The notes under the pieces were generated by a model. The model worked only from the letters and a program-made list of their open reading frames with translations. It searched no databases and was not told where the DNA came from. From IMG/VR virus record IMGVR_UViG_2896589216_000002: DNA of 34,924 nucleotides; one strand, written 5' to 3'. Below, one piece after another: positions 774 through 28,826 of this stretch; position 1 is the first letter of the stretch, and each line of letters starts with the position of its first letter. A program made the position numbers and the translations under genes. Origin of the DNA: a virus. Lineage: Duplodnaviria > Heunggongvirae > Uroviricota > Caudoviricetes.

Positions 774-2312
774 ATGAGCAGCTCACTTCCTGACGATATC
801 AATGCACTGAAACGTCTCCTTGCCGAACAGGAGGCGCTGAACCGTGCCCTGCTGGAAAAGCTGAACGAGCGTGAACGCGAAATAGACCATCTGCAGGCAC
901 AGCTGGATAAGCTGCGCCGGATGAACTTCGGCAGCCGCTCCGAAAAAGTCTCCCGTCGTATCGCACAGATGGAAGCTGACCTGAAGGCACTTCAGAAAGA
1001 AAGTGATACCCTTACCGGTCGGGTTGACGACCCGGCCGTGCAGCGCCCGCTGCGTCAAACCCGCACCCGCAAACCGTTCCCCGAATCACTCCCCCGCGAT
1101 GAAAAACGGCTGCTGCCGGCAGCGTCATGCTGCCCGGAATGTGGAGGCTCACTGAGCTATCCGGGTGAGGATGCCGCCGAACAGCTGGAGTTGATGCGCA
1201 GCGTCTTCCGGGTTATCCGGACTGTACGTGAAAAGCATGCCTGTACTCAGTGCGATGCCATCGTGCAGGCCCCCGCGCCTTCACGGCCCATCGAGCGGGG
1301 TATCGCAGGACCGGGGCTGCTGGCCCGCGTGCTGATCTCAAAGTATGCAGAGCACACCCCGCTGTACCGCCAGTCTGAAATGTACGGCCGCCAGGGCGTG
1401 GAGCTGAGTCGTTCACTGCTGTCGGGCTGGGTGGATGCATGCTGCCGGCTACTGTCACCGCTGGAAGAAGCGCTTCAGGACTATGTGCTGACTGACGGTA
1501 AGCTCCATGCTGATGACACGCCTGTCCCGGTGCTGTTGCCAGGCAATAAGAAAACGAAGACCGGGCGGTTATGGACCTACGTTCGTGACGACCGTAACGC
1601 CGGGTCAACGCTGGCGCCGGCGGTGTGGTTCGCTTACAGCCCGGACAGAAAAGGCATCCATCCGCAGACCCATCTTGCGGGGTTCAGTGGTGTACTGCAG
1701 GCGGATGCATACGCCGGGTTCAACGAGCTGTACCGGGATGGCCGGATAACGGAAGCCGCCTGTTGGGCTCACGCCCGCCGTAAAATCCACGATGTGCACG
1801 TTCGCACCCCGTCAGCCCTGACGGAGGAAGCGCTGAAACGGATCGGCGAACTGTACGCCATCGAGGCAGAGATAAGGGGAATGACGGCGGAGCAGCGCCT
1901 TGCCGAACGTCAGTTGAAAACGAAACCGCTGCTGAAATCCCTGGAAAGCTGGCTGCGTGAAAAGATGAAAACCCTGTCGCGACACTCAGAACTGGCGAAA
2001 GCGTTCGCATACGCCCTGAACCAGTGGCCGGCGCTGACGTACTATGCAGATGATGGCTGGGCTGAGGCGGACAATAACATCGCTGAAAATGCGTTGCGGA
2101 TGGTCAGTCTGGGCCGCAAAAACTACCTGTTCTTCGGTTCGGATCATGGAGGAGAGCGGGGAGCGCTGCTGTACAGCCTGATCGGGACGTGCAAACTGAA
2201 CGGAGTGGAGCCAGAAAGCTACCTCCGCTATGTCCTTGACGTCATAGCCGACTGGCCGATAAACCGGGTCGGCGAACTGCTCCCCTGGCGCGTAGCACTG
2301 CCGACTGAATAA
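774..2312 (+). CDS. tnpC: IS66-family transposase TnpC, 512 aa
   Basis: Long ORF with Cys-rich zinc-finger-like region (CCPECG...CTQC); identical to copy 3. Confidence 0.9.
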
Positions 2313-10390: not shown

Positions 10391-11068
10391 TTACCGGGAT
10401 CCCTGCGTGGTTGAGCCGCCGGACTCAACGCCGCCGTGAACGTGGTTTCCAAAATCAATACCCCCGATGTTCGAACCGCCGGAAAGCCTGGACTGCCCGG
10501 TAACGTCAAGCCCCTTACTGACGGCGGTATCGCCGTTCAGCGCAATTTGTGGTGAGTTAACGGTGAAGCTTTTCGGCGCATTAATCACCCCCTCAGGCGC
10601 GGATATCTCCACTTTCCAGGGAGATACAATCCGTATCTGGTTGTCATCAAATACCACAAACTGGACGGGATCACCGTTGAGCACGCCACCCAGCCAGATG
10701 GCATCAGCATAATTATGGGTACGCTTTGATCCCGGCATCGCAGCCTGACGCGTGGCTTTTACCGCACTGATATCCCGATCGCAGATGGCAAGAAAACCGA
10801 TATCCCCCACATGTGGCGGGATAATCACCGCATTACCGCCCCCCTGTAGTCGCCATACGGGAATGTTATAAATCACCTCATGTTCAACCGGGGAACCGTC
10901 TGCTGCAACGCCCATTACCATCGGTCGGGCCTCAATAAATCCCTCTTCCACGGCTACCACCCGTCCCAGAGTGATAAACGCATGACGTCCGAGAAACTGC
11001 CGCAGCATAAAGTCCTGTGCATTGATTTCGCTGTTCACGTCTGTCGGGTTACTGAGTGGTTGTGCCAT
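10391..11068 (-). CDS. baseplate spike / assembly protein V-like (Mu gp45-like), 225 aa
   Basis: C-terminal GNHVHGG motif; position upstream of W/J. Confidence 0.6.
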   Translation of the reverse strand: MAQPLSNPTDVNSEINAQDFMLRQFLGRHAFITLGRVVAVEEGFIEARPMVMGVAADGSPVEHEVIYNIPVWRLQGGGNAVIIPPHVGDIGFLAICDRDISAVKATRQAAMPGSKRTHNYADAIWLGGVLNGDPVQFVVFDDNQIRIVSPWKVEISAPEGVINAPKSFTVNSPQIALNGDTAVSKGLDVTGQSRLSGGSNIGGIDFGNHVHGGVESGGSTTQGSR

Positions 11069-11918
11069 TTTCTTCAGCCCTCATCATGGTACAGTTGGAA
11101 CTCCACGGACCGCCCACGGTTCGCGAAGTAATGGTGTGTATCACCCCTGTGATCGTATAATCGCCCGTCATATCAGGCAGTGACGATTCCAGATGCGCTG
11201 GCCTGCCAGTAAAGAGATCGGGGCAGAATATCGTGGTGGCGCTGAGTCCGGTCATGGTGTAAACCGGATAGCCAGTCAGTCCGTGATCCGGCGAAATCAG
11301 TACCGGCGGAATATTCCGGTTCTGCCCTTTCGGCCAGATGGTGACTTTCTCCACATTCCCCAGATCAATGTTAATATCGGCGGCTGAAGCGACATCCAGC
11401 ATTTGTTGTACAACATTACCGGAAAAATGCGGGTCAGACAGACTGCGGCTGACCCCCTGGTTTTCAAATCCAAGCCCGACAGTTGACGCCAGCGCACGGA
11501 TAATATCTGCAACCGCAACATCGCCCTTTGCGCTGAAATCTGCCGCCGGCTGATTACGCAGATTAAAATGAATCTGTCCTGTCAGAATGAGCGGAATATC
11601 CGGCGCCTGGTTGTAGTCGGCGTATGCATCAGTAATATCACCTTCAAAAATAAGCCGCCCGTCGGCCCACAGCCGCATTTTATTTGCGGTACTCTGCTCC
11701 TGTCGCCACACACCGCGCCAGCTTAAATTCGTCATATGCGCCGGTGACATTCCCCAGATATACAGCGTGATTTGTGTACCAGCCACCCCTCCATATACGG
11801 CAATACTGGCAAAACAGCTTGCGTCGGTAATGGTCAGCATATTGCCCTGGCCATTACCAAACGTTCGTCCGTCTGAAAGAGTGAACTCCACCGTTATTTT
11901 ACGTTGTCTGTAGCTCAT
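11049..11918 (-). CDS. phage tail protein, possible baseplate hub, 289 aa
   Basis: Position between tape measure and baseplate genes. Confidence 0.4.
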
Positions 11919-12217
11919 ATCAGTTCCTCAGGTAACAGCCAGTAGAGCCGGTACCGGGATCCGAGCCCCCGCCAGTCAGGGTCACTATTCCCCTCCGTGT
12001 CGGTAAAAAACAGATCCCCCTGAAACGGCAGGTATCCGTACCGGACAATCCGGTTATTATTCAGACACAGCACGCCATACAGGCACGGTTCACCATTAAC
12101 AATGATATCGATATACATCCCCGTAGTACGCTGATTCAGGCGAATGGTGCAGACCTGAGCGCCCAGTGTCACCGTAAACTGCTGGGCTTTAACGGGAGAT
12201 AAAACAATTTCCAGCAT
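11915..12217 (-). CDS. phage tail protein, 100 aa
   Basis: Translationally coupled within tail operon. Confidence 0.35.
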
Positions 12218-12927
12218 CAGGTGATCCCCCTGTTCGTGGCGCTTCGTCTGTCAGCGTCTGACGGTTGTGTCTCCGACGCCGTAACTGGCTGCGTTTTAAC
12301 CGATGCGGCCCCTTTTGCTTTATCGTTGTCCGTGGGAGACGACTTATCCGTACTTCCCACTGACACCTCTCCTGTATTCATTACGGTCTGAAATACCGCA
12401 GTAACCGTCAGTAAGGTCGGACCATTATTACTTCGCATTCGGTAGTCATATTTCACAAGGTCGCAGGATGTCCATGTCTTGTCCGGCGTCTCAATATCGT
12501 AGAGTCCTGCCGTGGTACGCATCCTTTCAAGCGTTTCCAGCACATTCGTCCGCGAGGTGGTGGAAAAATTTGTCAGGTTCGGGACGGATCCGGAAAAGGC
12601 CGTCCACCCCTCTACAGTGAAAGTCACATGCAGTTCCGGCGATCTCTGGATTTTATTAAAGGTGGTATAAGCCCCCTGCTCCACGGGGACGGTGGAAACA
12701 GAAGCCTCCGCGCCCACCTCAACGACAACAAAAGAATCCGGGGAGAAAGGTTTGCCACCCTTCTGATGGGCACCTGCCGGATCATTCCGTGCGTAATAAA
12801 TACCGAATGACGGTGCCAGTACACTATTAATGAGTCCCAGGACACAGCCGCCACGAACTGCACTCAGTACGTTACTTTCACTGAGCGAAAAGTTATTCAG
12901 GGAAATATTATCGAAAGAAAAACTCAT
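12217..12927 (-). CDS. phage tail protein, 236 aa, directly downstream of tape measure
   Basis: Operon position; overlapping stop/start. Confidence 0.4.
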
Positions 12928-14944
12928 CCTGTTACCCCGCTGGAATAAACCGACACAAGCGCCGAATTCGTGATACGCCGACGTGCGTCATCGGTAATAC
13001 CCTTCACATTGTCCGACGTTGTGGTGACATTCAGTGTCCCGATATGCGTGGTTTCCGTTACGGTGGACTGCGATACAGGCGCAGGATGGAGCGACCGTAT
13101 GGCCATTGCCGCACCCGGATAAGGCAGGTTCGCCAGCACCCGCGGAATATAGTTGCGGGTCTCCTCCGGAGCAGCAGCCAGTCCCTTACGCTGAACATTT
13201 CCCTCTCCACAGTTATATGCCGCCAGAGCCTTAGCCAGATCGCCATGAAAAAAACGTATCAGGCCACCAAGTTTTCTCGCGGCGGCATCAGCGGCTTTTT
13301 CGGGATCAAAGGCATCGTTCCCCCTCAGACCAAATTCACTGGCCGTCTTCGGCATGAACTGAAACAGTCCCATCGCACCAGCAGGTGAGACGGCAAACTG
13401 ATTACCACGGGATTCGGTGATCGCAACGCTGCGCAGCAGTCCGGGCGGCAGGTTATATTTTTCCTCCAGTTGAGACAGTTTCGGTTGCAGCCAGCCTAAC
13501 AGGGCTTCCCCGGTCTTCGTCGGTCGCTGGCGGTTTTGCATGGCATTACCGAGTTTTTCCTGCGTCGCACGCATACCCTGTAGCCAGGATTCACCGAAGG
13601 CTGCTTCCCTCCCGGTTGCCTGAGAAGCCTGAGTATCCAGCATGCCCTGCTGCCATACTGTGGGTGATTGTGCCCGGGTGATGTTGCCAGGCTTTTCTCC
13701 GGCATCCAGTTTTGTCTGATACGTCTCCATCTCTTTCTTATTGAAAAAGAAAGTCCCGTCTGAAGCCCAGAAAAAACCATGTGAATCCAGCCAGTCCTTA
13801 TTTTCCCTGCCAACAATGGATGTCAGTAATCCGTCAACAACCGGGTAAAGCGCCGTTATCGCAAAAAGAAGGCCTCCGGGGCCACTGAGGGCTTTTGTCA
13901 GCCCCCGCACCCATGACGCCACTTTCAGCCCGATCAGCGTAATAATGACATTCTGCCAGCCCCCCAGTTCTCCGGCAGCCTTATTCGCTAGGGAGGCCAC
14001 TGACTCAACGTCATTCAGAAATGTGGTGATAAACCTGTTCACTTCCTCCGGATGTTGCTGCATCCAGTCACCGAGTGTCTCCAGCCAGTGGCTGAGCTTC
14101 AGCGCGTACGGCATCAACGCGGTGCTAATCGTCATCCCGATGCCGGACCAGGTCTGATCGAGCTCAACAAGCTCTTTTCGTAGCTTACGGGCCAGCGCTG
14201 TACGCCCCGGCGTAACCTGCGAACGGGAAGTAAATTCGTCCACATCTTTCAGCGCATGACCGGAGCCAAGAAACTGCTGTCCGGCATAACTGAAGCCCAG
14301 CGCGTTGCCGTAGGCAGTTTGTTCGGACTTTGTCAGTCGCGGAAAAATAACCGCCAGCTTGCGCATGATGGCTTCAGTGCTGTCAGTATTTAAATCAACA
14401 CTAATGCCCGCCCTGGCTGCAACCTGAAACAAATCCTGTAACACAGGATCAAAGGACCTTCCGGCTCTGAAGGCCGCTTTTGCATTTGCAAGCCGGGAAA
14501 ATGCCCCAGACATTTCCCCTTCATCAACATTATTTGCCCGCGCAGCCCGTAACCATCCGTCCAGATTTCTGGCCTTCATGCCAAAAGCATCGGATTCCAC
14601 GGACAGACGGTTCAGATCACGGGCAAAACCTGTTACCAGGTTCTTCAGCCCCCCAGCGTCAGACTGACACCCGCAAGAGCCAGAATCTCGCTACGGATTC
14701 CTGAAAAAAAACGGGACGCCCGTTTCCCGGCATCTTCCATTCGACGGGCCGTTTTATCAGCATCTTTTCCGGTTTTTTCCAGTGATTCACTGGTTTTCTT
14801 CTGTCCCTGACTGAATGTGTCAGCGACACCTTCCATCACCGTCGTGAGCCGGTTAAGGGCAGCATGTACTGCCTGTTCCCCGGCAGTAAAGTCCCTGTCA
14901 TCAATCCCGAGGGACAGAACAAGCTCATCAAGTACCTGCGCCAT
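12924..14944 (-). CDS. tail tape measure protein with C-terminal lytic transglycosylase (SLT) domain; N-terminal 99 aa and main 558 aa separated by a frameshift in a C6 tract
   Basis: SLT motif (ITESRGNQFAVSPAGAMGLFQFMP...AYNCGEGNV); adding one G to the run at 14649-14654 fuses the frames as ...SLTLGGLKNLVTGFARDLNRLSVESDAF... Confidence 0.7.
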
Positions 14945-15180
14945 TTCTGTTCTCCTGTATCACCTGTTCGTTATGGGCATCCACATGAATTATTTCCAGC
15001 AGATCCCATAAGTCCTGCACACCAAGGACAGAATCCAGTTCAGCTTTTGAAGCCTTACCGGAGGAGATAACGGTCGCAATGGTACGGGGAACATTAACGT
15101 AATCCACCACCCCGAACGGTCTGTCGGGGTCGAGATAACGCGGGGGATATCTAGCTGACGACGGTAGCGAAAAAATCCAC
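14928..15180 (-). CDS. candidate frameshift extension of tail chaperone (+1 frame relative to 15151-15555)
   Basis: Protein-like +1 frame (...PRYLDPDRPFGVVDYVNVPRTIATVISSGKASKAELDSVLGVQDLWDLLEIIHVD...) opens at the T6C run and ends overlapping the tape measure start. Confidence 0.4.
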
Positions 15181-15555
15181 ATGCAGCTTAAAGACCTCCG
15201 CACGCAGATTAAGACGGGTAATGATTTCTTCAATATCCTCTTCAACAAGCGGTCTCCGGATGCTGCGTTTTTTCGGATCGGGAACAAACTGCACACAGTC
15301 CATCATTTCATCCATCAACGGACGCGCCTCATCAGGCGGAATTTTCGATAATGCTTTCAGCCCTTCAAGGGCAAGCGCAGCCATCCCCAGACTACGAACA
15401 TCATCCGGTAACTCCACGCCACCACGCCCCATTGCCATAATGGCACGCATCGCCCACCATTCCGCCTGTGAGGCAGACATTTCGGTAAGATGAAATACCT
15501 TGCCCTTATCCCGTCCCTGACCTTCAATAGTGATAAATTTCTCTTTACGGGCCAT
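15151..15555 (-). CDS. tail assembly chaperone, 134 aa
   Basis: Directly upstream of tape measure; ends at slippery run GAT TTT TTC. Confidence 0.5.
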   Translation of the reverse strand: MARKEKFITIEGQGRDKGKVFHLTEMSASQAEWWAMRAIMAMGRGGVELPDDVRSLGMAALALEGLKALSKIPPDEARPLMDEMMDCVQFVPDPKKRSIRRPLVEEDIEEIITRLNLRAEVFKLHVDFFATVVS

Positions 15556-15893
15556 CAGTTAAAAACCTCCGGAGTAATGGTTTCCCACTCAATAACCGCC
15601 TGCCCTGGCTGCAACGTACGAGCTGCATCAGGCAGCGCTTTCCATTGTTTGAGTACGCCATTCACGCAGGTATATTTACGGCCAATCGCCGGAAGCAGGA
15701 CGACAGCGTTACAACGGAATACAGCCCGACTGGCCCGGATGTGGTTGACCAGGTATCAAAAATATCCCGGCTGGGGGAATCCGGCATGATATGAAACGTC
15801 TGGATAATGTTGCTGTACACAAATCCCGCGGACAGTTTGGTAATGCTGCCAACTTACTGATTTAGTGTATGATGGTGATTTTAAGGTGCTTGC

Positions 15894-16169
15894 GTGGCTT
15901 CCATTTCCATCAGATGTCCTTCCTGCTCCGCTACTGAAGGCGTGGTGCGTAACGGCAAAAGCACTGCCGGACATCAGCGCTATCTCTGCTCTCATTGCCG
16001 TAAAACATGGCAACTACAGTTCACTTACACCGCCTCTCAGCCCGGTACGCACCAGAAAATCATTGATATGGCCATGAATGGCGTCGGATGTCGCGCCAGT
16101 GCACGCATTATGGGCGTTGACCTCAACACGGTTTTCCGTCACTTAAAAAACTCAGGCCGCAGTCGGTAA
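15894..16169 (+). CDS. insA: IS1 InsA
   Basis: 91-aa InsA. Confidence 0.9.
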
Positions 16170-16195
16170 CCTCGCGCATACAACCGGGCAGTGAT

Positions 16196-16591
16196 GTGAT
16201 TGTCTGCGCTGAAATGGACGAACAGTGGGGCTACGTCGGTGCTAAATCACGTCAGCGCTGGCTGTTTTACGCGTATGACAGGATACGGAGGACGGTTGTG
16301 GCGCACGTCTTCGGTGAACGCACTCTGGCCACACTGGAGCGTCTTCTGAGCCTGCTGTCGGCCTTTGAGGTCGTGGTATGGATGACGGATGGCTGGCCGC
16401 TGTATGAATCACGCCTGAAGGGAAAGCTGCACGTTATCAGCAAGCGTTACACTCAGCGCATTGAGCGACATAATCTGAATCTGAGACAACATCTGGCAAG
16501 GCTGGGACGGAAGTCACTGTCGTTCTCAAAATCGGTGGAGCTGCATGACAAGGTCATCGGGCATTATCTGAACATAAAACACTATCAGTAA
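16196..16591 (+). CDS. insB: IS1 InsB
   Basis: InsB frame. Confidence 0.9.
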
Positions 16592-17955
16592 GTTGGAGTC
16601 ATTACCGACAGTTTACCGTCAATACCGCGGGCAGTTTCCGCCAGTACCAGTGGATCGGTGCCATAAACGTTATCTGTTGCAAATCCCTGAAGTCGTACGC
16701 CGGAGGGATACAGATTATTCACTGTCAGCGTGATAATGGCATCCGCCGCAGTGATGGTGTTGTTGTTACCCGACATTTACTGGACCTCCGTGGATGCAAT
16801 AACAAGTTTCTGGATACTACCGCCGTCACAGTACCAGAGCGTACAGGACGGACTGCTACGGGTTGCCCGCAAAGAGGGAAGCATATCGCCGATATACAGG
16901 TAATAGCCGGTGGCAAACAACGTTGAAGAAACATCTGCCTCCACAACATTGTTAATCTGTTTCTTCTGCGCCTCCGTCAGTGTCACCCCTTCACGGATCC
17001 CTCCCAGCGTTTGTACTGCTGGATAACGTCACTCATTGACGCTGCAACCAGCGCCCGCCCTTCATTGTTGTAGGGGACCGTCTGGTTTGACTTGAATAAT
17101 GCGATCACCGCCCCTGCAAACTGGCATTCAGCCAGATTTGCCCGCAGAAACTGTCCAGCCATTTAAAATCACCGGTAATAGTGCCATCCGCCCAGTAATC
17201 TTCCACCACACTGTTTTCCGCATATTTTCCGTAGAAATTGTAACCTGCGGCGATCAGCGCATCATAATCGCTGCCACTGGTAACATCAGCGGCCAGCCCC
17301 TCATACTCGCGGAACTTGAATGATACACGCCCCTCTGGTCGGATAAAATCAAGGCACGCTGCATACCCCAGTACCGCTGCAGCCCGGTTACCATCAGTCG
17401 CGAAAACAGGTACAACAGAGCTGTAGTTATTGACAGCAATTATCTGGTAAGCGATGTGTTCAGTACTGCCTTTTACTCTGGCGTTGCCGCTGGTTGTCCA
17501 TGCCACATAAAAGTAACGCTTGCCCTGCCCGTTTGCCCATGCAGAAAACGCCAGGTGTTGCTCGTCAGTGACCTCAGATACCGTGGAAAAACCCGCCCAT
17601 TGCTGGGAAGCGGCCTTAATGGCTGCCATTGTGTCAGGGACATCAGATACAGGCGCGCCCCGGGATATCACCGCACCGGTGTTACTGGTCATCTTCAGGA
17701 GTTCTGCTGCCGATCCACTGCCGAACGTTATCGTGGTACTCCCGGGTTTCGCCCCGGCGACAGTAATGACAAAAGCATTCTGTGTGGTATCGAATACCAC
17801 TGTAGCCACTGCTGCGGTCAGCGCTGTCTGTAGTGCCGTTGCAGCAGCGGCGAAGCTGGCGACACCGTTAAAATTCACTTCAATGCTGACGCTTTTCCCG
17901 TTAATACTCAGCATCAGCGTAAGCGTGCAGCAAGAACCGTATTGACGGGGATGTG

Positions 17956-19493
17956 TTATTCAGTCGGCAGTGCTACGCGCCAGGGGAGCAGTTCGCCGAC
18001 CCGGTTTATCGGCCAGTCGGCTATGACGTCAAGTACATAGCGGAGGTAGCTTTCTGGCTCCACTCCGTTCAGTTTGCACGTCCCGATCAGGCTGTACAGC
18101 AGCGCTCCCCGCTCTCCTCCATGATCCGAACCGAAGAACAGGTAGTTTTTGCGGCCCAGACTGACCATCCGCAACGCATTTTCAGCGATGTTATTGTCCG
18201 CCTCAGCCCAGCCATCATCTGCATAGTACGTCAGCGCCGGCCACTGGTTCAGGGCGTATGCGAACGCTTTCGCCAGTTCTGAGTGTCGCGACAGGGTTTT
18301 CATCTTTTCACGCAGCCAGCTTTCCAGGGATTTCATCAGCGGTTTCGTTTTCAACTGACGTTCGGCAAGGCGCTGCTCCGCCGTCATTCCCCTTATCTCT
18401 GCCTCGATGGCGTACAGTTCGCCGATCCGTTTCAGCGCTTCCTCCGTCAGGGCTGACGGGGTGCGAACGTGCACATCGTGGATTTTACGGCGGGCGTGAG
18501 CCCAACAGGCGGCTTCCGTTATCCGGCCATCCCGGTACAGCTCGTTGAACCCGGCGTATGCATCCGCCTGCAGTACACCACTGAACCACGCAAGATGGGT
18601 CTGCGGATGGATGCCTTTTCTGTCCGGGCTGTAAGCGAACCACACCGCCGGCGCCAGCGTTGACCCGGCGTTACGGTCGTCACGAACGTAGGTCCATAAC
18701 CGCCCGGTCTTCGTTTTCTTATTGCCTGGCAACAGCACCGGGACAGGCGTGTCATCGCATGGAGCTTACCGTCAGTCAGCACATAGTCCTGAAGCGCTTC
18801 TTCCAGCGGTGACAGTAGCCGGCAGCATGCATCCACCCAGCCCGACAGCAGTGAACGACTCAGCTCCACGCCCTGGCGGCCGTACATTTCAGACTGGCGG
18901 TACAGCGGGGTGTGCTCTGCATACTTTGAGATCAGCACGCGGGCCAGCAGCCCCGGTCCTGCGATACCCCGCTCGATGGGCCGTGAAGGCGCGGGGGCCT
19001 GCACGATGGCATTGCACTGAGTACAGGCATGCTTTTCACGTACAGTCCGGATAACCCGGAAGACGCTGCGCATCAACTCCAGCTGTTCGGCGGCATCCTC
19101 ACCCGGATAGCTCAGTGAGCCTCCACATTCCGGGCAGCATGACGCTGCCGGCAGCAGCCGTTTTTCATCGCGGGGGAGTGATTCGGGGAACGGTTTGCGG
19201 GTGCGGGTTTGACGCAGCGGGCGCTGCACGGCCGGGTCGTCAACCCGACCGGTAAGGGTATCACTTTCTTTCTGAAGTGCCTTCAGGTCAGCTTCCATCT
19301 GTGCGATACGACGGGAGACTTTTTCGGAGCGGCTGCCGAAGTTCATCCGGCGCAGCTTATCCAGCTGTGCCTGCAGATGGTCTATTTCGCGTTCACGCTC
19401 GTTCAGCTTTTCCAGCAGGGCACGGTTCAGCGCCTCCTGTTCGGCAAGGAGACGTTTCAGTGCATTGATATCGTCAGGAAGTGAGCTGCTCAT
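17956..19493 (-). pseudogene. tnpC: IS66 tnpC with 1-nt deletion (copy 2)
   Basis: gtcatcgcatgg near 18755-18760 versus gtcatcagcatgg in copy 3; ORF splits into 324 + 260 aa. Confidence 0.85.
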
Positions 19494-19541
19494 ACCGGGT
19501 ATATTACCAGGCTCATTCAGCGTCGACCAGGATAAAGAGGC

Positions 19542-19889
19542 TTACAACATAGTCAGGGACGTAAGCAGTCTTTTAGGCTGCCGCCAGTCGATACCTTCAA
19601 GGAGCATCGCCAGCTGTGCCGGTGTGAGGAACACTTTGCCATCCCGGGCTGACGGCCAGGCGAAGCGGCCGCGCTCCAGCCGTTTGGTCAGCAGACACAG
19701 TCCATCGCCGGTAGACCAGAGGAGCTTTACCTGACTGCCATTACGCCCACGGAAGATAAAAACGTGACCTGACATCGGATCGTCTTTCAGCGTCGTCTGC
19801 ACCTTTGCCGCCAGGCCGTTGAAGCCATTTCTCATATCGGTGATACCGGCAACCAGCCAAATTTTGGTCCCGGAAGGTAACGGGATCAT
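19542..19889 (-). CDS. tnpB: IS66 TnpB (copy 2)
   Basis: Identical to copies 1 and 3. Confidence 0.85.
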   Translation of the reverse strand: MIPLPSGTKIWLVAGITDMRNGFNGLAAKVQTTLKDDPMSGHVFIFRGRNGSQVKLLWSTGDGLCLLTKRLERGRFAWPSARDGKVFLTPAQLAMLLEGIDWRQPKRLLTSLTML

Positions 19890-20287
19890 CGCTTCAGTTC
19901 CTGTATCAGCAGAGTCAGGAGCTTTTCGCTGACATTGCCATTAAAGCGGAGCGTCCCGTGCCGGAACGTTACCTCACAGCTGATACTGAGGGTTTCCGGA
20001 TCCTCTGCGAGCGATTCTGGCTGTTCGGCAGCTGCATCGAGAGTCACAGGAAGTAGCTGGGGGCTCTCTGAAGAAGGTAATAGCAGCTTTCCCTCGCGCC
20101 ATTGTTGTCGCCATTTGAACAACAGATTGGCGTTAATGCCATTTTCAAGAGCAAGTTTTGAGATGGATATCCCGGGTTCACAGGAGGCAGCAACGAGCTG
20201 CTGTTTAAATTCGGGAGGATAATTAGGGCAGCCTTTTCGCCTGCCGGGATTCACATTTTTCTGCATATCTGACACTTTGGTTCCCAC
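19886..20287 (-). CDS. tnpA: IS66 TnpA (copy 2)
   Basis: 133-aa full-length. Confidence 0.85.
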   Translation of the reverse strand: MGTKVSDMQKNVNPGRRKGCPNYPPEFKQQLVAASCEPGISISKLALENGINANLLFKWRQQWREGKLLLPSSESPQLLPVTLDAAAEQPESLAEDPETLSISCEVTFRHGTLRFNGNVSEKLLTLLIQELKR

Positions 20288-20687
20288 TACTTATTTGGTG
20301 GACACCACTTTGTCTAATTCGTCAGATTCTGACCAGACGGTTCAGGCTGTACGCTTACGCATCAGCGTGCCGGAAAGTTTTTGTAGCTGTTCAACAGTCG
20401 CGCCCTTAAACGAACCGCTACGTAACCAGGCCGCCGATGGGGCAGGACTGAAACGGGAAAACAACAATTGCCCCGGCGTCCTGGTGGCATTTTTGAAGCC
20501 CTGGAAATAAAGCTGAGCGCGTGCGTACTCATCGGATAATGCACCAAAATACGCGGCCACATCATCCGGAGAGGAAAACGGAACCACAGTGCCGACCGGA
20601 AGTAACGGATTACTGGTCAACAGCAGGCCGTTAAGATCGACGGCATTACCCGCCACAGCCAGCACACCGGGATTTATCTGTACATCT

Positions 20688-21233
20688 TTACTGAGTGGAA
20701 TTGGCATTATCAGCCTCCGTTGTCCGGGTGATCACGTTGTCAAAAAACATCAGGGAAGTTGTGACCACAGGGTTAATCTGCATCTGAATATCAAGCGTCC
20801 AGCGCGGTTCATACTGTTGCTGACCGTTGGGGAATGTGGTGTTAAAGGGCTCTGAGCAATACAGCGGGGAAATCAGCCCACCGCCCTGCCGGAAAAGCCG
20901 TACGGAAAATTCAGACCGGAAAAGCGTTGCCAGCACCTGAGCGTTATCTGCCGCGTGAGGGCCGTAGAAATCAAGCTGGCAACGCCATTTTGTGGTACGG
21001 GTGATATGCTGAGAGCCCTCACCAGCCTGCGCTGGCGCAGAATATGCCACTACCGCAGTGGATAATCCGGTAACATCAATGCCCGTCATGGTGATGAAAT
21101 TCCCCTGAGGCATCGGGACCTGGTTCTGCTGCGTTCGTTCAATCCCGGCATCAGAAAAAAGCCCCCGGTGATAATCACCGAGGGCCTGATAAAGAGCGCT
21201 TTCCGTAACGGAGAGGGTCACACCTGAAGGCAT
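20688..21233 (-). CDS. phage virion protein immediately upstream of sheath, 181 aa
   Basis: Tight operon; position of tail terminator/completion proteins. Confidence 0.4.
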   Translation of the reverse strand: MPSGVTLSVTESALYQALGDYHRGLFSDAGIERTQQNQVPMPQGNFITMTGIDVTGLSTAVVAYSAPAQAGEGSQHITRTTKWRCQLDFYGPHAADNAQVLATLFRSEFSVRLFRQGGGLISPLYCSEPFNTTFPNGQQQYEPRWTLDIQMQINPVVTTSLMFFDNVITRTTEADNANSTQ

Positions 21234-21583
21234 ACAATAACCCTCGTCCAGTCAGGCCAGATTTCCAGTACCTCAATCACCAGCCACGTTTCATCGCCAA
21301 TAACAAATTTATCGCCTCCCTGTTGCCGGGCACGGTTAAGCCCGCACCAGTTACCATCGGTATACAATGTGGCGAAAACTCCCTGCTGGTTAAGATTATC
21401 AAGATGACGTAAATCAGCCTGGGTGACAGCCTGCTTTTGCCCCCTGACGGAAACCGGATCTTCATACTCAGGTACGCGGGAATAATCTGCCTGCTGTGTA
21501 CTCCCGCGGGAACGATAAACCAGCGCGTCTGTAAAGGGATTTACCCGACGTACTGCGCCGGAAACAATACCGTGAAAGTTCAT
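21218..21583 (-). CDS. phage head-tail joining protein, 121 aa
   Basis: Overlapping coupled ORF in structural operon. Confidence 0.4.
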   Translation of the reverse strand: MNFHGIVSGAVRRVNPFTDALVYRSRGSTQQADYSRVPEYEDPVSVRGQKQAVTQADLRHLDNLNQQGVFATLYTDGNWCGLNRARQQGGDKFVIGDETWLVIEVLEIWPDWTRVIVCLQV

Positions 21584-21834
21584 TTTTTGCCCCCGTCTAC
21601 AGAATAATCAACGCTGTCCATCATATGTCCGGTTTCAATAAGCGGGTTGTTAAAACCCTTTTGCCGGGCAGTGGATGCAGCGTTGGACGGACTTTCCCAG
21701 TCGCGAACAGACATCTGCAACTGCCCTTTGATATGTTCTCCCATACACACCAGAGCGGTCGCAGTATCAAAATCATTCGCCCGTAATAAGGTCGCCATTT
21801 TTTCGCCCCATTCGGGACTTTTATGTTCGATCAT
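21580..21834 (-). CDS. phage structural protein, 84 aa
   Basis: ATGA coupling on both sides. Confidence 0.35.
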   Translation of the reverse strand: MIEHKSPEWGEKMATLLRANDFDTATALVCMGEHIKGQLQMSVRDWESPSNAASTARQKGFNNPLIETGHMMDSVDYSVDGGKK

Positions 21835-22163
21835 CTTACGGAAGAACGGACGGGGGGAATGGTGACCGTGTGCTCAGGAATAACCACATCCTGAACAAAA
21901 TTCCCTTTACCGGCTTTGACAAAGCGGTGCCCGGTTTCTCCCGTTTTTTCGTTATAGCGAAAGTGGAGCGTCTGCTCACGGGCGGGTATGACCGCTCTTC
22001 CACCAAACTCCTGAACTGCGGCAATATAAGCCACTGACGTACCGTCAGGGTAAGTTGCTCCCTCAAGAAAACCCACTTTGAGTTTTTTACCCAATGAAAG
22101 GTTCGCGGCAACCTGTTTCAGCTTCTGCCGGAACTGTTTGCCACCTGTGACTTTATTTACCAT
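21831..22163 (-). CDS. phage head-tail connector/completion protein (HK97 gp10-like size), 110 aa
   Basis: Operon position. Confidence 0.4.
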
Positions 22164-22612
22164 CGACGCCCCCTCCCGTATCCCCGGTAATAATGCCCCG
22201 GATATCGCGAAGGTGCCCCCCCGGAATGATACTGCATTGAGCGGTATGGCGCTGTCGCCTGCCAGTAGTCAGCACCCCAGGGGGTCTGGAGATACCACCA
22301 CGACGCATCATTACTGCCGCTATTATCCACCGATACCGATACAGAACCTTCCGACGCACTGGTGATACGCCCCACCAGACCAGCCTGCCCGTCTCTCCCG
22401 TTTCCCAGCCCCCGCAATGCGCACAGATGCGCAACCAGCAGGAACAGAAGCTGTTCCCGCTCCTTCAGGTCGGTAACCGGACTGTCGTCCGTGTTATCCA
22501 GGTACAACGCGGTCGCCCGGTTAAACACCGCCGTCAGTAGCTCCGGTGTCACCGTGGAAAACTCCGGGTACAGACTGACAAACATCCGACAGTCAAACGT
22601 CACCGTACCCAT
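22157..22612 (-). CDS. phage head-tail adaptor-like protein, 151 aa
   Basis: Operon position; Gly/Arg/Tyr-rich C-terminus. Confidence 0.4.
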
Positions 22613-22617
22613 AGCGT

Positions 22618-23685
<1,068 letters not shown>

Positions 23686-26232: not shown

Positions 26233-26359
26233 GGTGATGACTCCAACTTACTGATAGTGTTTTATGTTCAGATAATGCCCGATGACCTTGTCATGCAGCT
26301 CCACCGATTTTGAGAACGACAGTGACTTCCGTCCCAGCCTTGCCAGATGTTGTCTCAGA
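26233..26359 (-). mobile_element. IS1 fragment (127 bp, IRR end plus insB 3' end), truncated by IS66 copy 3
   Basis: Identical to the 4462-4588 end of IS1 copy 1 up to ...tgtctcaga. Confidence 0.9.
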
Positions 26360-26396
26360 GTAAGCGTGCAGCAAGAACCGTATTGACGGGGATGTG

Positions 26397-27935
26397 TTAT
26401 TCAGTCGGCAGTGCTACGCGCCAGGGGAGCAGTTCGCCGACCCGGTTTATCGGCCAGTCGGCTATGACGTCAAGTACATAGCGGAGGTAGCTTTCTGGCT
26501 CCACTCCGTTCAGTTTGCACGTCCCGATCAGGCTGTACAGCAGCGCTCCCCGCTCTCCTCCATGATCCGAACCGAAGAACAGGTAGTTTTTGCGGCCCAG
26601 ACTGACCATCCGCAACGCATTTTCAGCGATGTTATTGTCCGCCTCAGCCCAGCCATCATCTGCATAGTACGTCAGCGCCGGCCACTGGTTCAGGGCGTAT
26701 GCGAACGCTTTCGCCAGTTCTGAGTGTCGCGACAGGGTTTTCATCTTTTCACGCAGCCAGCTTTCCAGGGATTTCAGCAGCGGTTTCGTTTTCAACTGAC
26801 GTTCGGCAAGGCGCTGCTCCGCCGTCATTCCCCTTATCTCTGCCTCGATGGCGTACAGTTCGCCGATCCGTTTCAGCGCTTCCTCCGTCAGGGCTGACGG
26901 GGTGCGAACGTGCACATCGTGGATTTTACGGCGGGCGTGAGCCCAACAGGCGGCTTCCGTTATCCGGCCATCCCGGTACAGCTCGTTGAACCCGGCGTAT
27001 GCATCCGCCTGCAGTACACCACTGAACCCCGCAAGATGGGTCTGCGGATGGATGCCTTTTCTGTCCGGGCTGTAAGCGAACCACACCGCCGGCGCCAGCG
27101 TTGACCCGGCGTTACGGTCGTCACGAACGTAGGTCCATAACCGCCCGGTCTTCGTTTTCTTATTGCCTGGCAACAGCACCGGGACAGGCGTGTCATCAGC
27201 ATGGAGCTTACCGTCAGTCAGCACATAGTCCTGAAGCGCTTCTTCCAGCGGTGACAGTAGCCGGCAGCATGCATCCACCCAGCCCGACAGCAGTGAACGA
27301 CTCAGCTCCACGCCCTGGCGGCCGTACATTTCAGACTGGCGGTACAGCGGGGTGTGCTCTGCATACTTTGAGATCAGCACGCGGGCCAGCAGCCCCGGTC
27401 CTGCGATACCCCGCTCGATGGGCCGTGAAGGCGCGGGGGCCTGCACGATGGCATCGCACTGAGTACAGGCATGCTTTTCACGTACAGTCCGGATAACCCG
27501 GAAGACGCTGCGCATCAACTCCAGCTGTTCGGCGGCATCCTCACCCGGATAGCTCAGTGAGCCTCCACATTCCGGGCAGCATGACGCTGCCGGCAGCAGC
27601 CGTTTTTCATCGCGGGGGAGTGATTCGGGGAACGGTTTGCGGGTGCGGGTTTGACGCAGCGGGCGCTGCACGGCCGGGTCGTCAACCCGACCGGTAAGGG
27701 TATCACTTTCTTTCTGAAGTGCCTTCAGGTCAGCTTCCATCTGTGCGATACGACGGGAGACTTTTTCGGAGCGGCTGCCGAAGTTCATCCGGCGCAGCTT
27801 ATCCAGCTGTGCCTGCAGATGGTCTATTTCGCGTTCACGCTCGTTCAGCTTTTCCAGCAGGGCACGGTTCAGCGCCTCCTGTTCGGCAAGGAGACGTTTC
27901 AGTGCATTGATATCGTCAGGAAGTGAGCTGCTCAT
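26397..27935 (-). CDS. tnpC: IS66 transposase TnpC (copy 3, intact)
   Basis: 512 aa, identical to copy 1. Confidence 0.9.
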
Positions 27936-27983
27936 ACCGGGTATATTACCAGGCTCATTCAGCGTCGACCAGGATAAAGAGGC

Positions 27984-28331
27984 TTACAACATAGTCAGGG
28001 ACGTAAGCAGTCTTTTAGGCTGCCGCCAGTCGATACCTTCAAGGAGCATCGCCAGCTGTGCCGGTGTGAGGAACACTTTGCCATCCCGGGCTGACGGCCA
28101 GGCGAAGCGGCCGCGCTCCAGCCGTTTGGTCAGCAGACACAGTCCATCGCCGGTAGACCAGAGGAGCTTTACCTGACTGCCATTACGCCCACGGAAGATA
28201 AAAACGTGACCTGACATCGGATCGTCTTTCAGCGTCGTCTGCACCTTTGCCGCCAGGCCGTTGAAGCCATTTCTCATATCGGTGATACCGGCAACCAGCC
28301 AAATTTTGGTCCCGGAAGGTAACGGGATCAT
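27984..28331 (-). CDS. tnpB: IS66 TnpB (copy 3)
   Basis: Identical. Confidence 0.85.
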   Translation of the reverse strand: MIPLPSGTKIWLVAGITDMRNGFNGLAAKVQTTLKDDPMSGHVFIFRGRNGSQVKLLWSTGDGLCLLTKRLERGRFAWPSARDGKVFLTPAQLAMLLEGIDWRQPKRLLTSLTML

Positions 28332-28729
28332 CGCTTCAGTTCCTGTATCAGCAGAGTCAGGAGCTTTTCGCTGACATTGCCATTAAAGCGGAGCGTCCCG
28401 TGCCGGAACGTTACCTCACAGCTGATACTGAGGGTTTCCGGATCCTCTGCGAGCGATTCTGGCTGTTCGGCAGCTGCATCGAGAGTCACAGGAAGTAGCT
28501 GGGGGCTCTCTGAAGAAGGTAATAGCAGCTTTCCCTCGCGCCATTGTTGTCGCCATTTGAACAACAGATTGGCGTTAATGCCATTTTCAAGAGCAAGTTT
28601 TGAGATGGATATCCCGGGTTCACAGGAGGCAGCAACGAGCTGCTGTTTAAATTCGGGAGGATAATTAGGGCAGCCTTTTCGCCTGCCGGGATTCACATTT
28701 TTCTGCATATCTGACACTTTGGTTCCCAC
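28328..28729 (-). CDS. tnpA: IS66 TnpA (copy 3)
   Basis: Identical. Confidence 0.85.
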   Translation of the reverse strand: MGTKVSDMQKNVNPGRRKGCPNYPPEFKQQLVAASCEPGISISKLALENGINANLLFKWRQQWREGKLLLPSSESPQLLPVTLDAAAEQPESLAEDPETLSISCEVTFRHGTLRFNGNVSEKLLTLLIQELKR

Positions 28730-28826
28730 TACTTATTTGGTGGACACCACTTTGTCTAATTCGTCAGATTCTGACCAGACGGTTCAGGCTGTACGCTTAC
28801 GTTTTTATAATCCGGCCATGACATTT

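Follow-up and report, generated by a model that had tools for sequence, protein, structure and literature searches.

The question raised by the locus described here is which of its apparent lesions belong to the organism and which belong to the assembly. The locus lies in a 34,924-nucleotide stretch of viral DNA (IMG/VR record IMGVR_UViG_2896589216_000002, Caudoviricetes), referred to throughout as the window, and it makes up the tail module of a defective myovirus prophage (~45-kb type) carried by Shigella dysenteriae. Within it, the gene predicted to encode the tail sheath is interrupted by an insertion sequence (IS) of the IS66 family and, downstream of the interruption, is twice displaced from its reading frame at short runs of C. 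An earlier note on this DNA, made from the sequence alone, had put these two shifts down to homopolymer miscalls or slipped-strand mutation, leaving both possibilities standing. The answer reached here is that the tail module was inactivated by real IS insertions and that the two frameshifts in the sheath gene are, with high confidence, homopolymer under-calls and not biological events; of the two possibilities offered in the note, the error signature set out below strongly favours the first and speaks against the second.

In window coordinates, which are used throughout, the minus strand carries the sheath gene, from its ATG at 20707 to its stop at 16777. The 5′ fragment of the gene (20367-20707, minus strand) holds codons 1 to ~114, and forms part of an open reading frame (ORF) of 121 amino acids (aa) that reads on into the end of the IS (20342-20707). 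It is followed by one copy of an 8-bp direct repeat, GCATCAGC (20359-20366), then by an ISEc22-like IS66-family element of 2440 bp (17919-20358, minus strand, like the sheath gene itself) with terminal inverted repeats that start GTAAGCG, then by the second copy of the repeat (17911-17918). The 3′ fragment of the gene (16777-17918, minus strand; codons ~115-494) is spread over three frames, as ORFs of 269, 59 and 69 aa.

If the IS and one copy of GCATCAGC are deleted in silico, 1483 bp of sheath sequence remain, and these align over their full length with an unbroken gene of 1485 bp that encodes a protein of 494 aa (WP_001122282.1, annotated as ‘DUF3383 domain-containing protein’) and is present in enteroinvasive E. 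coli (EIEC) CFSAN029787 as well as in six further E. coli genomes. The EIEC gene carries a single copy of GCATCAGC at the empty site. Across the junction the two sequences are identical, and elsewhere they differ by four substitutions and two missing bases, and by nothing else. The earlier note's description of a sheath gene cut by IS66 with an 8-bp duplication is therefore borne out by the collinearity with the EIEC gene. So too is its statement that the N-terminal 384 aa are continuous once the IS is removed: with the element excised, frame 0 stays open for 384 codons, up to a final NASLQGR and a stop. Its estimate that the C-terminal ~110 aa lie in two other frames also agrees with what is found, as some 111 residues remain, the next ~39 read in a second frame and the final ~72 in a third.

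The insertion is far from private to this window. An exact copy of the 121-aa junction ORF occurs on 107 contigs that are named as Shigella or S. dysenteriae and in 153 index blocks, mostly drafts of 2-5 kb, and an identical IS66 junction is present in at least 12 long S. dysenteriae assemblies. The split of the sheath gene is real, old and inherited by a whole clade of S. dysenteriae; it came about by transposition of the ISEc22-like element into sheath codon ~114, leaving behind the usual 8-bp target duplication. A second insertion lies close by, in the adjacent tail-tube gene (E217_Gp32 family; 16585-16776, minus strand), which is truncated after ~57 native codons by a 768-bp IS1 (15839-16606, plus strand) with the 8-bp duplication GACAGTTT at 15831-15838 and 16607-16614; the intact tube gene in EIEC measures 447 bp. 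This IS1 insertion too is real and inherited by a whole clade of the species. With the sheath gene cut by IS66 and the neighbouring tube gene truncated by IS1, the tail module is dead whatever view is taken of the frameshifts.

The two shifts map to C runs that are each one base short. The first is at a C4 run (17111-17114; G4 on the coding strand), exactly where the earlier note had located it, and this run is C5 in every intact copy read there. The second had been assigned to 16986-16989, about 15 nt away from its true site, which is a C3 run at 17003-17005 that reads C4 wherever the copy is intact; adding a base at 16986-16989 would restore the frame, but would leave EGSVKG where the homologues read GGIREG. 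The further proposal, that one base added at each shift gives back a sheath of ~495 aa, stands as regards restoration through two C runs, while the length needs correcting to 494 aa. The longer runs, C5 and C4, are read directly in ten other loci, six of which are short draft contigs, and among the E. coli outgroups C4 is found at the 17003 site in both CFSAN029787 and FDAARGOS_943, and C5 at 17111 in CFSAN029787. In all, at least 11 other assemblies that carry this IS insertion combine the full runs with an intact C-terminal ORF of 379 aa, six short draft contigs among them.

Comparison among assemblies that share the same IS66 junction shows the downstream fragment in several different states. 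It forms a single ORF of 379 aa in UYIT01000003, CP026807, CP045784, PSSQ01, PSST01, CP026815 and CP026828, but is split into 310 + 69 aa in CP026823 and CP026842, into 269 + 128 aa in CP026825, into 219 + 128 aa in CP026805, and into 269 + 69 aa in CP026832, which is the state seen in the window. The repaired ORF of the window corresponds residue for residue to the 379-aa protein of five of these assemblies, which is carried on 29 contigs, including drafts of 1.4-1.8 kb bounded by IS66 and IS1. Each of the shifted ORFs, by comparison, is found on 2-3 contigs only, all of them CP0268xx records.

The pattern becomes clearer over a longer interval. When 12.5 kb of the window (10400-22900) were aligned with ten other assemblies of the locus (11 in all), there were 38 indel columns, 35 of which come down to the loss of one base from a G or C run of 3-7 bases, and just one of which has an extra base; not one indel was found among the 321 A/T runs of at least 3 bases in this alignment. 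All 35 of the G/C-run deletions are confined to seven long-read assemblies, the short draft contigs having none, and the count is likewise zero in UYIT01, CP026807, CP045784 and PSSQ01. Taken assembly by assembly, homopolymer deletions number from 0 to 25, as against 1-9 single-nucleotide polymorphisms (SNPs), the extreme case being CP026842 with 25 deletions in 12.5 kb (2 per kb) against 3 SNPs; the window itself carries five. The distribution of the two sheath deletions also cuts across that of the SNPs. The deletion at 17111 is present in CP026832, CP026825 and CP026805, but is absent from UYIT01, which shares every SNP with CP026805, while the deletion at 17003 is present in CP026832, CP026823 and CP026842, representing three SNP lineages, and absent from their sister assemblies. 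Each of the two sheath deletions is thus spread over two to three lineages.

These deletions, then, are confined to homopolymers, run in one direction, are restricted to particular assemblies, face a longer run in independent assemblies, short draft contigs included, and do not follow the SNP phylogeny, all of which are marks of consensus error. A pattern that is deletion-only, G/C-only and assembly-specific, at a density reaching 2 per kb, is incompatible with real mutation. It is also the pattern expected of the residual consensus error in unpolished long-read assemblies.

The source of the window is consistent with such an origin. Over 20.8 kb the window is 100.000% identical to CP026832.1, a record that the ShigaPass paper traces to PacBio sequencing of S. 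dysenteriae 14 ATCC 49346 by Kim et al. 2018. For this assembly series, Yassine et al. describe “numerous indels in the homopolymers” and indicate that there was no short-read polishing. The shifts at 17111-17114 and 17003-17005 are almost certainly both single-base under-calls of G/C homopolymers in the unpolished, PacBio-only consensus CP026832.1, the clade's real sequence being C5 and C4, which gives an uninterrupted 379-aa C-terminal frame downstream of the IS. From the sequences of its relatives, we infer that ATCC 49346 itself carries C5 and C4.

The remaining three of the window's short runs belong to the same class of artefact. One is a C6 run (14649-14654) in the tape-measure / lytic-transglycosylase gene, which the earlier note had rightly grouped with the sheath shifts; all clean assemblies and the E. 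coli outgroups show C7 there, and the intact protein has 673 aa. Another is a G5 run (15142-15146), G6 in the clean assemblies, in a small ORF that lies upstream of the tape-measure gene. The last is a G6 run (21852-21857), G7 in the clean assemblies, that splits a 194-aa structural gene into 110 + 84 aa. At the equivalent of this last run, E. coli CFSAN029787 (NZ_CP011416.1, 8528-9111) has G6 and not G7, and its gene is annotated ‘frameshifted’, while FDAARGOS_943 has G7 and an intact gene; under-calling of this run seems to extend to other long-read assemblies. A different behaviour is seen at a C7 run (22216-22222), the sole site with a +1 variant: CP026842, PSSQ01 and PSST01 have one base more here, CP026823 has one fewer, and the sequence in the E. 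coli outgroup is ACCCCCC.

All this said, there are points that weigh against the under-call interpretation, and they coincide to a large extent with the case for its nearest competitor, namely that both 1-bp deletions arose in ATCC 49346 by genuine strand slippage, as neutral decay of a gene that IS66 had already inactivated. The run lengths of ATCC 49346 are deduced from its relatives, and it is here that the slight residual doubt about the verdict of artefact lies. The sheath gene was already a pseudogene by virtue of IS66, and the module was dead from this together with IS1 in the tube gene, so that real frameshifts could build up without cost. Homopolymers are well-known slippage sites, G/C runs being genuine hotspots, and some of the homoplasy could be biological. 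It is clear, too, that 1-bp deletions do arise in this locus, since the transposase gene tnpC of the IS66 element in the sheath has one near 18757, outside any homopolymer (CATCGCATGG in the window versus CATCAGCATGG in full-length copies). This deletion is common to CP026807, an assembly that is free of homopolymer deletions, and so probably represents a genuine change that this IS copy acquired in one sub-lineage.

Against slippage in the strain itself, however, stands the fact that the same two sheath deletions recur across SNP lineages while sister assemblies are without them. Slippage would also have to account for indels that are exclusively deletions, exclusively in G/C runs and missing from all 321 of the A/T runs, for an excess of deletions over SNPs of up to ~8:1 (a density such as that of CP026842 would, if real, wreck the genome), and for the fact that neither the short draft contigs nor four of the long-read assemblies show them; the series from which the window derives is moreover the one described by Yassine et al. 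as unpolished and rich in homopolymer indels. Slipped-strand mutation in ATCC 49346 is for these reasons very unlikely. A variant of it, less probable again, would take the G/C-run deletions as real throughout and attribute them to a −1 frameshift mutator specific for G:C homopolymers in long-stored historical Shigella strains, in which case ATCC 49346 would truly be C4 and C3 at the two sites.

One might also suppose that phase variation or programmed frameshifting takes place at the C runs, where slippage in replication, transcription or translation yields a full-length C-terminal segment of the sheath. Two homopolymer shifts do lie within one gene, and tail-gene clusters are indeed known for programmed frameshifting, in the tail chaperone. 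With a 2.4-kb IS upstream of both sites, however, the gene cannot give a full-length product. Each tract is just 3-5 bases long, and those of contingency loci are typically far longer; in E. coli, Salmonella and cultured phages the homologue is one unshifted ORF of 494 aa; and no +1 length variant was seen at either site among the assemblies compared. Short tracts, an IS-split gene and deletions alone effectively refute a phase-variable contingency locus. That the sheath might naturally end near residue 384, with unrelated sequence downstream, is suggested by the stop codon of the window and by nothing more, and is ruled out by a Pfam DUF3383 match that spans profile positions 2-492 of 493 (E = 1.1e-139), by coverage of at least 80% of the query in 186 of 195 matching phage records (the matches listed run to residue 490-494), and by an alignment with 9b42, which among solved sheaths most resembles E217 gp31, that extends to residue 440; homologues thus continue past the point of the shift, where the earlier note had allowed that they might end.

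The under-call interpretation carries a caution beyond this gene. At least four of the prophage structural genes in the window (sheath, tape measure, the 194-aa gene and the small ORF) look frameshifted only because of assembly errors, and pseudogene counts, calls of ‘phase variation’ and inferences of gene decay that draw on CP026832.1 and its sister PacBio-only Shigella assemblies will be inflated at G/C homopolymers. The insertion of an IS66-family element into a prophage sheath gene, on the other hand, is real but an ordinary event of an already-known kind. IS-driven decay of the genome is well known in Shigella, and the disabling of a prophage tail module by IS66 and IS1 fits that pattern.

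As for the element itself, its assignment to the IS66 family follows from three consecutive genes tnpA-tnpB-tnpC, inverted repeats of the GTAAGCG type and an 8-bp duplication relative to the empty site. The gene tnpA (19886-20287, minus strand), for the accessory protein, is identified as an ORF with Pfam HTH_Tnp_1, and tnpB (19542-19889, minus strand) as an ORF with Pfam TnpB_IS66; tnpC (17956-19493, minus strand), for the DDE transposase, matches Pfam LZ_Tnp_IS66, zf-IS66, DDE_Tnp_IS66 and DDE_Tnp_IS66_C. The inverted repeats at the ends are imperfect, with 19 of the first 22 bases matching, and the element is 99.5% identical, over 100% of its length, to copies annotated in RefSeq as ‘IS66-like element ISEc22 family’. 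As a consequence of the deletion near 18757, tnpC is split into ORFs of 324 and 260 aa, and the copy in the sheath lacks the uninterrupted TnpC of ~512 aa that an autonomous element would have; to judge from this split it is probably unable to supply its own transposase, and is probably non-autonomous.

Two other ISEc22-like copies in the window (at about 1-2350 and 26355-28801) do encode the full 512-aa TnpC, in ORFs at 774-2312 (plus strand) and 26397-27935 (minus strand), as do copies in other strains; the two in the window stand on either side of the prophage remnant. CP026840 has a different sequence downstream of its IS66 copy in the sheath gene, which suggests an IS66-mediated rearrangement. 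In two other S. dysenteriae assemblies, a gene for an IpaH-type effector (LRR_TTSS plus NEL E3 ligase) adjoins an IS66 copy near the prophage remnant (positions 1-1713 of locus L008 and 1-160 of locus L021).

It remains to say what kind of sheath this is. The earlier note had called it Mu-like, a label that does not hold: once repaired, the protein of 494 aa scores 467 bits with Pfam PF11863 (DUF3383, alternatively E217_gp31_N) against a gathering cut-off of 34.9, while neither Phage_sheath_1 nor Phage_sheath_1C gives a Pfam match at E ≤ 0.01. Among solved structures, residues 18-441 match the sheath of Pseudomonas phage E217 (8env, 8fuv and 8fvg, E about 4e-16; for 8env_A, ‘Sheath protein gp31’, E = 4.3e-16), and there is a match to 9b42_S, ‘gp32 Sheath’ of a related phage, at E = 2.8e-17. 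The genomic setting is of the same type: the sheath gene sits between Phage_tail_terminator_9 upstream and the E217_Gp32 tube gene downstream, and its E217-type neighbours comprise gp27, gp28, the tail terminator, tube Gp32, hub GP41 and the sheath initiator.

Phage relatives were sought by tblastn of a phage collection with the repaired sheath, which gave the 195 matching records already mentioned (megablast of the 3′ fragment against the same collection gave no match, the relatives being found only at the protein level). The closest cultured-phage sheath among the matches listed is that of Pantoea phage PA-1, with 52% identity, followed among those listed by Edwardsiella Edno5 at 41% and by three groups at 30-36%, those of Burkholderia Bcep1 and Acinetobacter AP22 (both ~33%) and that of Xanthomonas XPP1; neither the matches listed nor the organism summary of the 195 records contains an entry named Mu. 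On this evidence of profile and homology the protein is, as predicted from sequence, a full-length contractile tail sheath of the DUF3383 / E217 gp31 type, and membership of the Mu gpL / Phage_sheath_1 group is not supported, although a distant shared fold may exist.

Each component of this locus may finally be set beside its known counterpart. In its indels the region of the window resembles the unpolished PacBio Shigella series of Kim et al. 2018, sharing with it deletions that occur only in G/C runs and are incongruent with the SNPs, and no difference from that series was found. The IS in the sheath has the tnpA/tnpB/tnpC layout, GTAAGCG-type repeats and 8-bp target duplication of ISEc22 insertions in Shigella and E. 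coli, but at 2440 bp it is one base shorter than the annotated ISEc22-family copies (2441 bp), and its tnpC is split where those of the two other copies in the window are full. With Mu gpL, P2 FI and T4 gp18, which belong to Phage_sheath_1, the sheath predicted here shares its role in a contractile tail and its length (~495 aa), while the structural module around it is of the E217 / Bcep1 / AP22 type and not of the Mu type. It is with E217 gp31 that the likeness goes furthest, extending to the full-length PF11863 match and the E217-type neighbouring genes, though the present gene is distant in sequence from E217 itself and is a prophage pseudogene.

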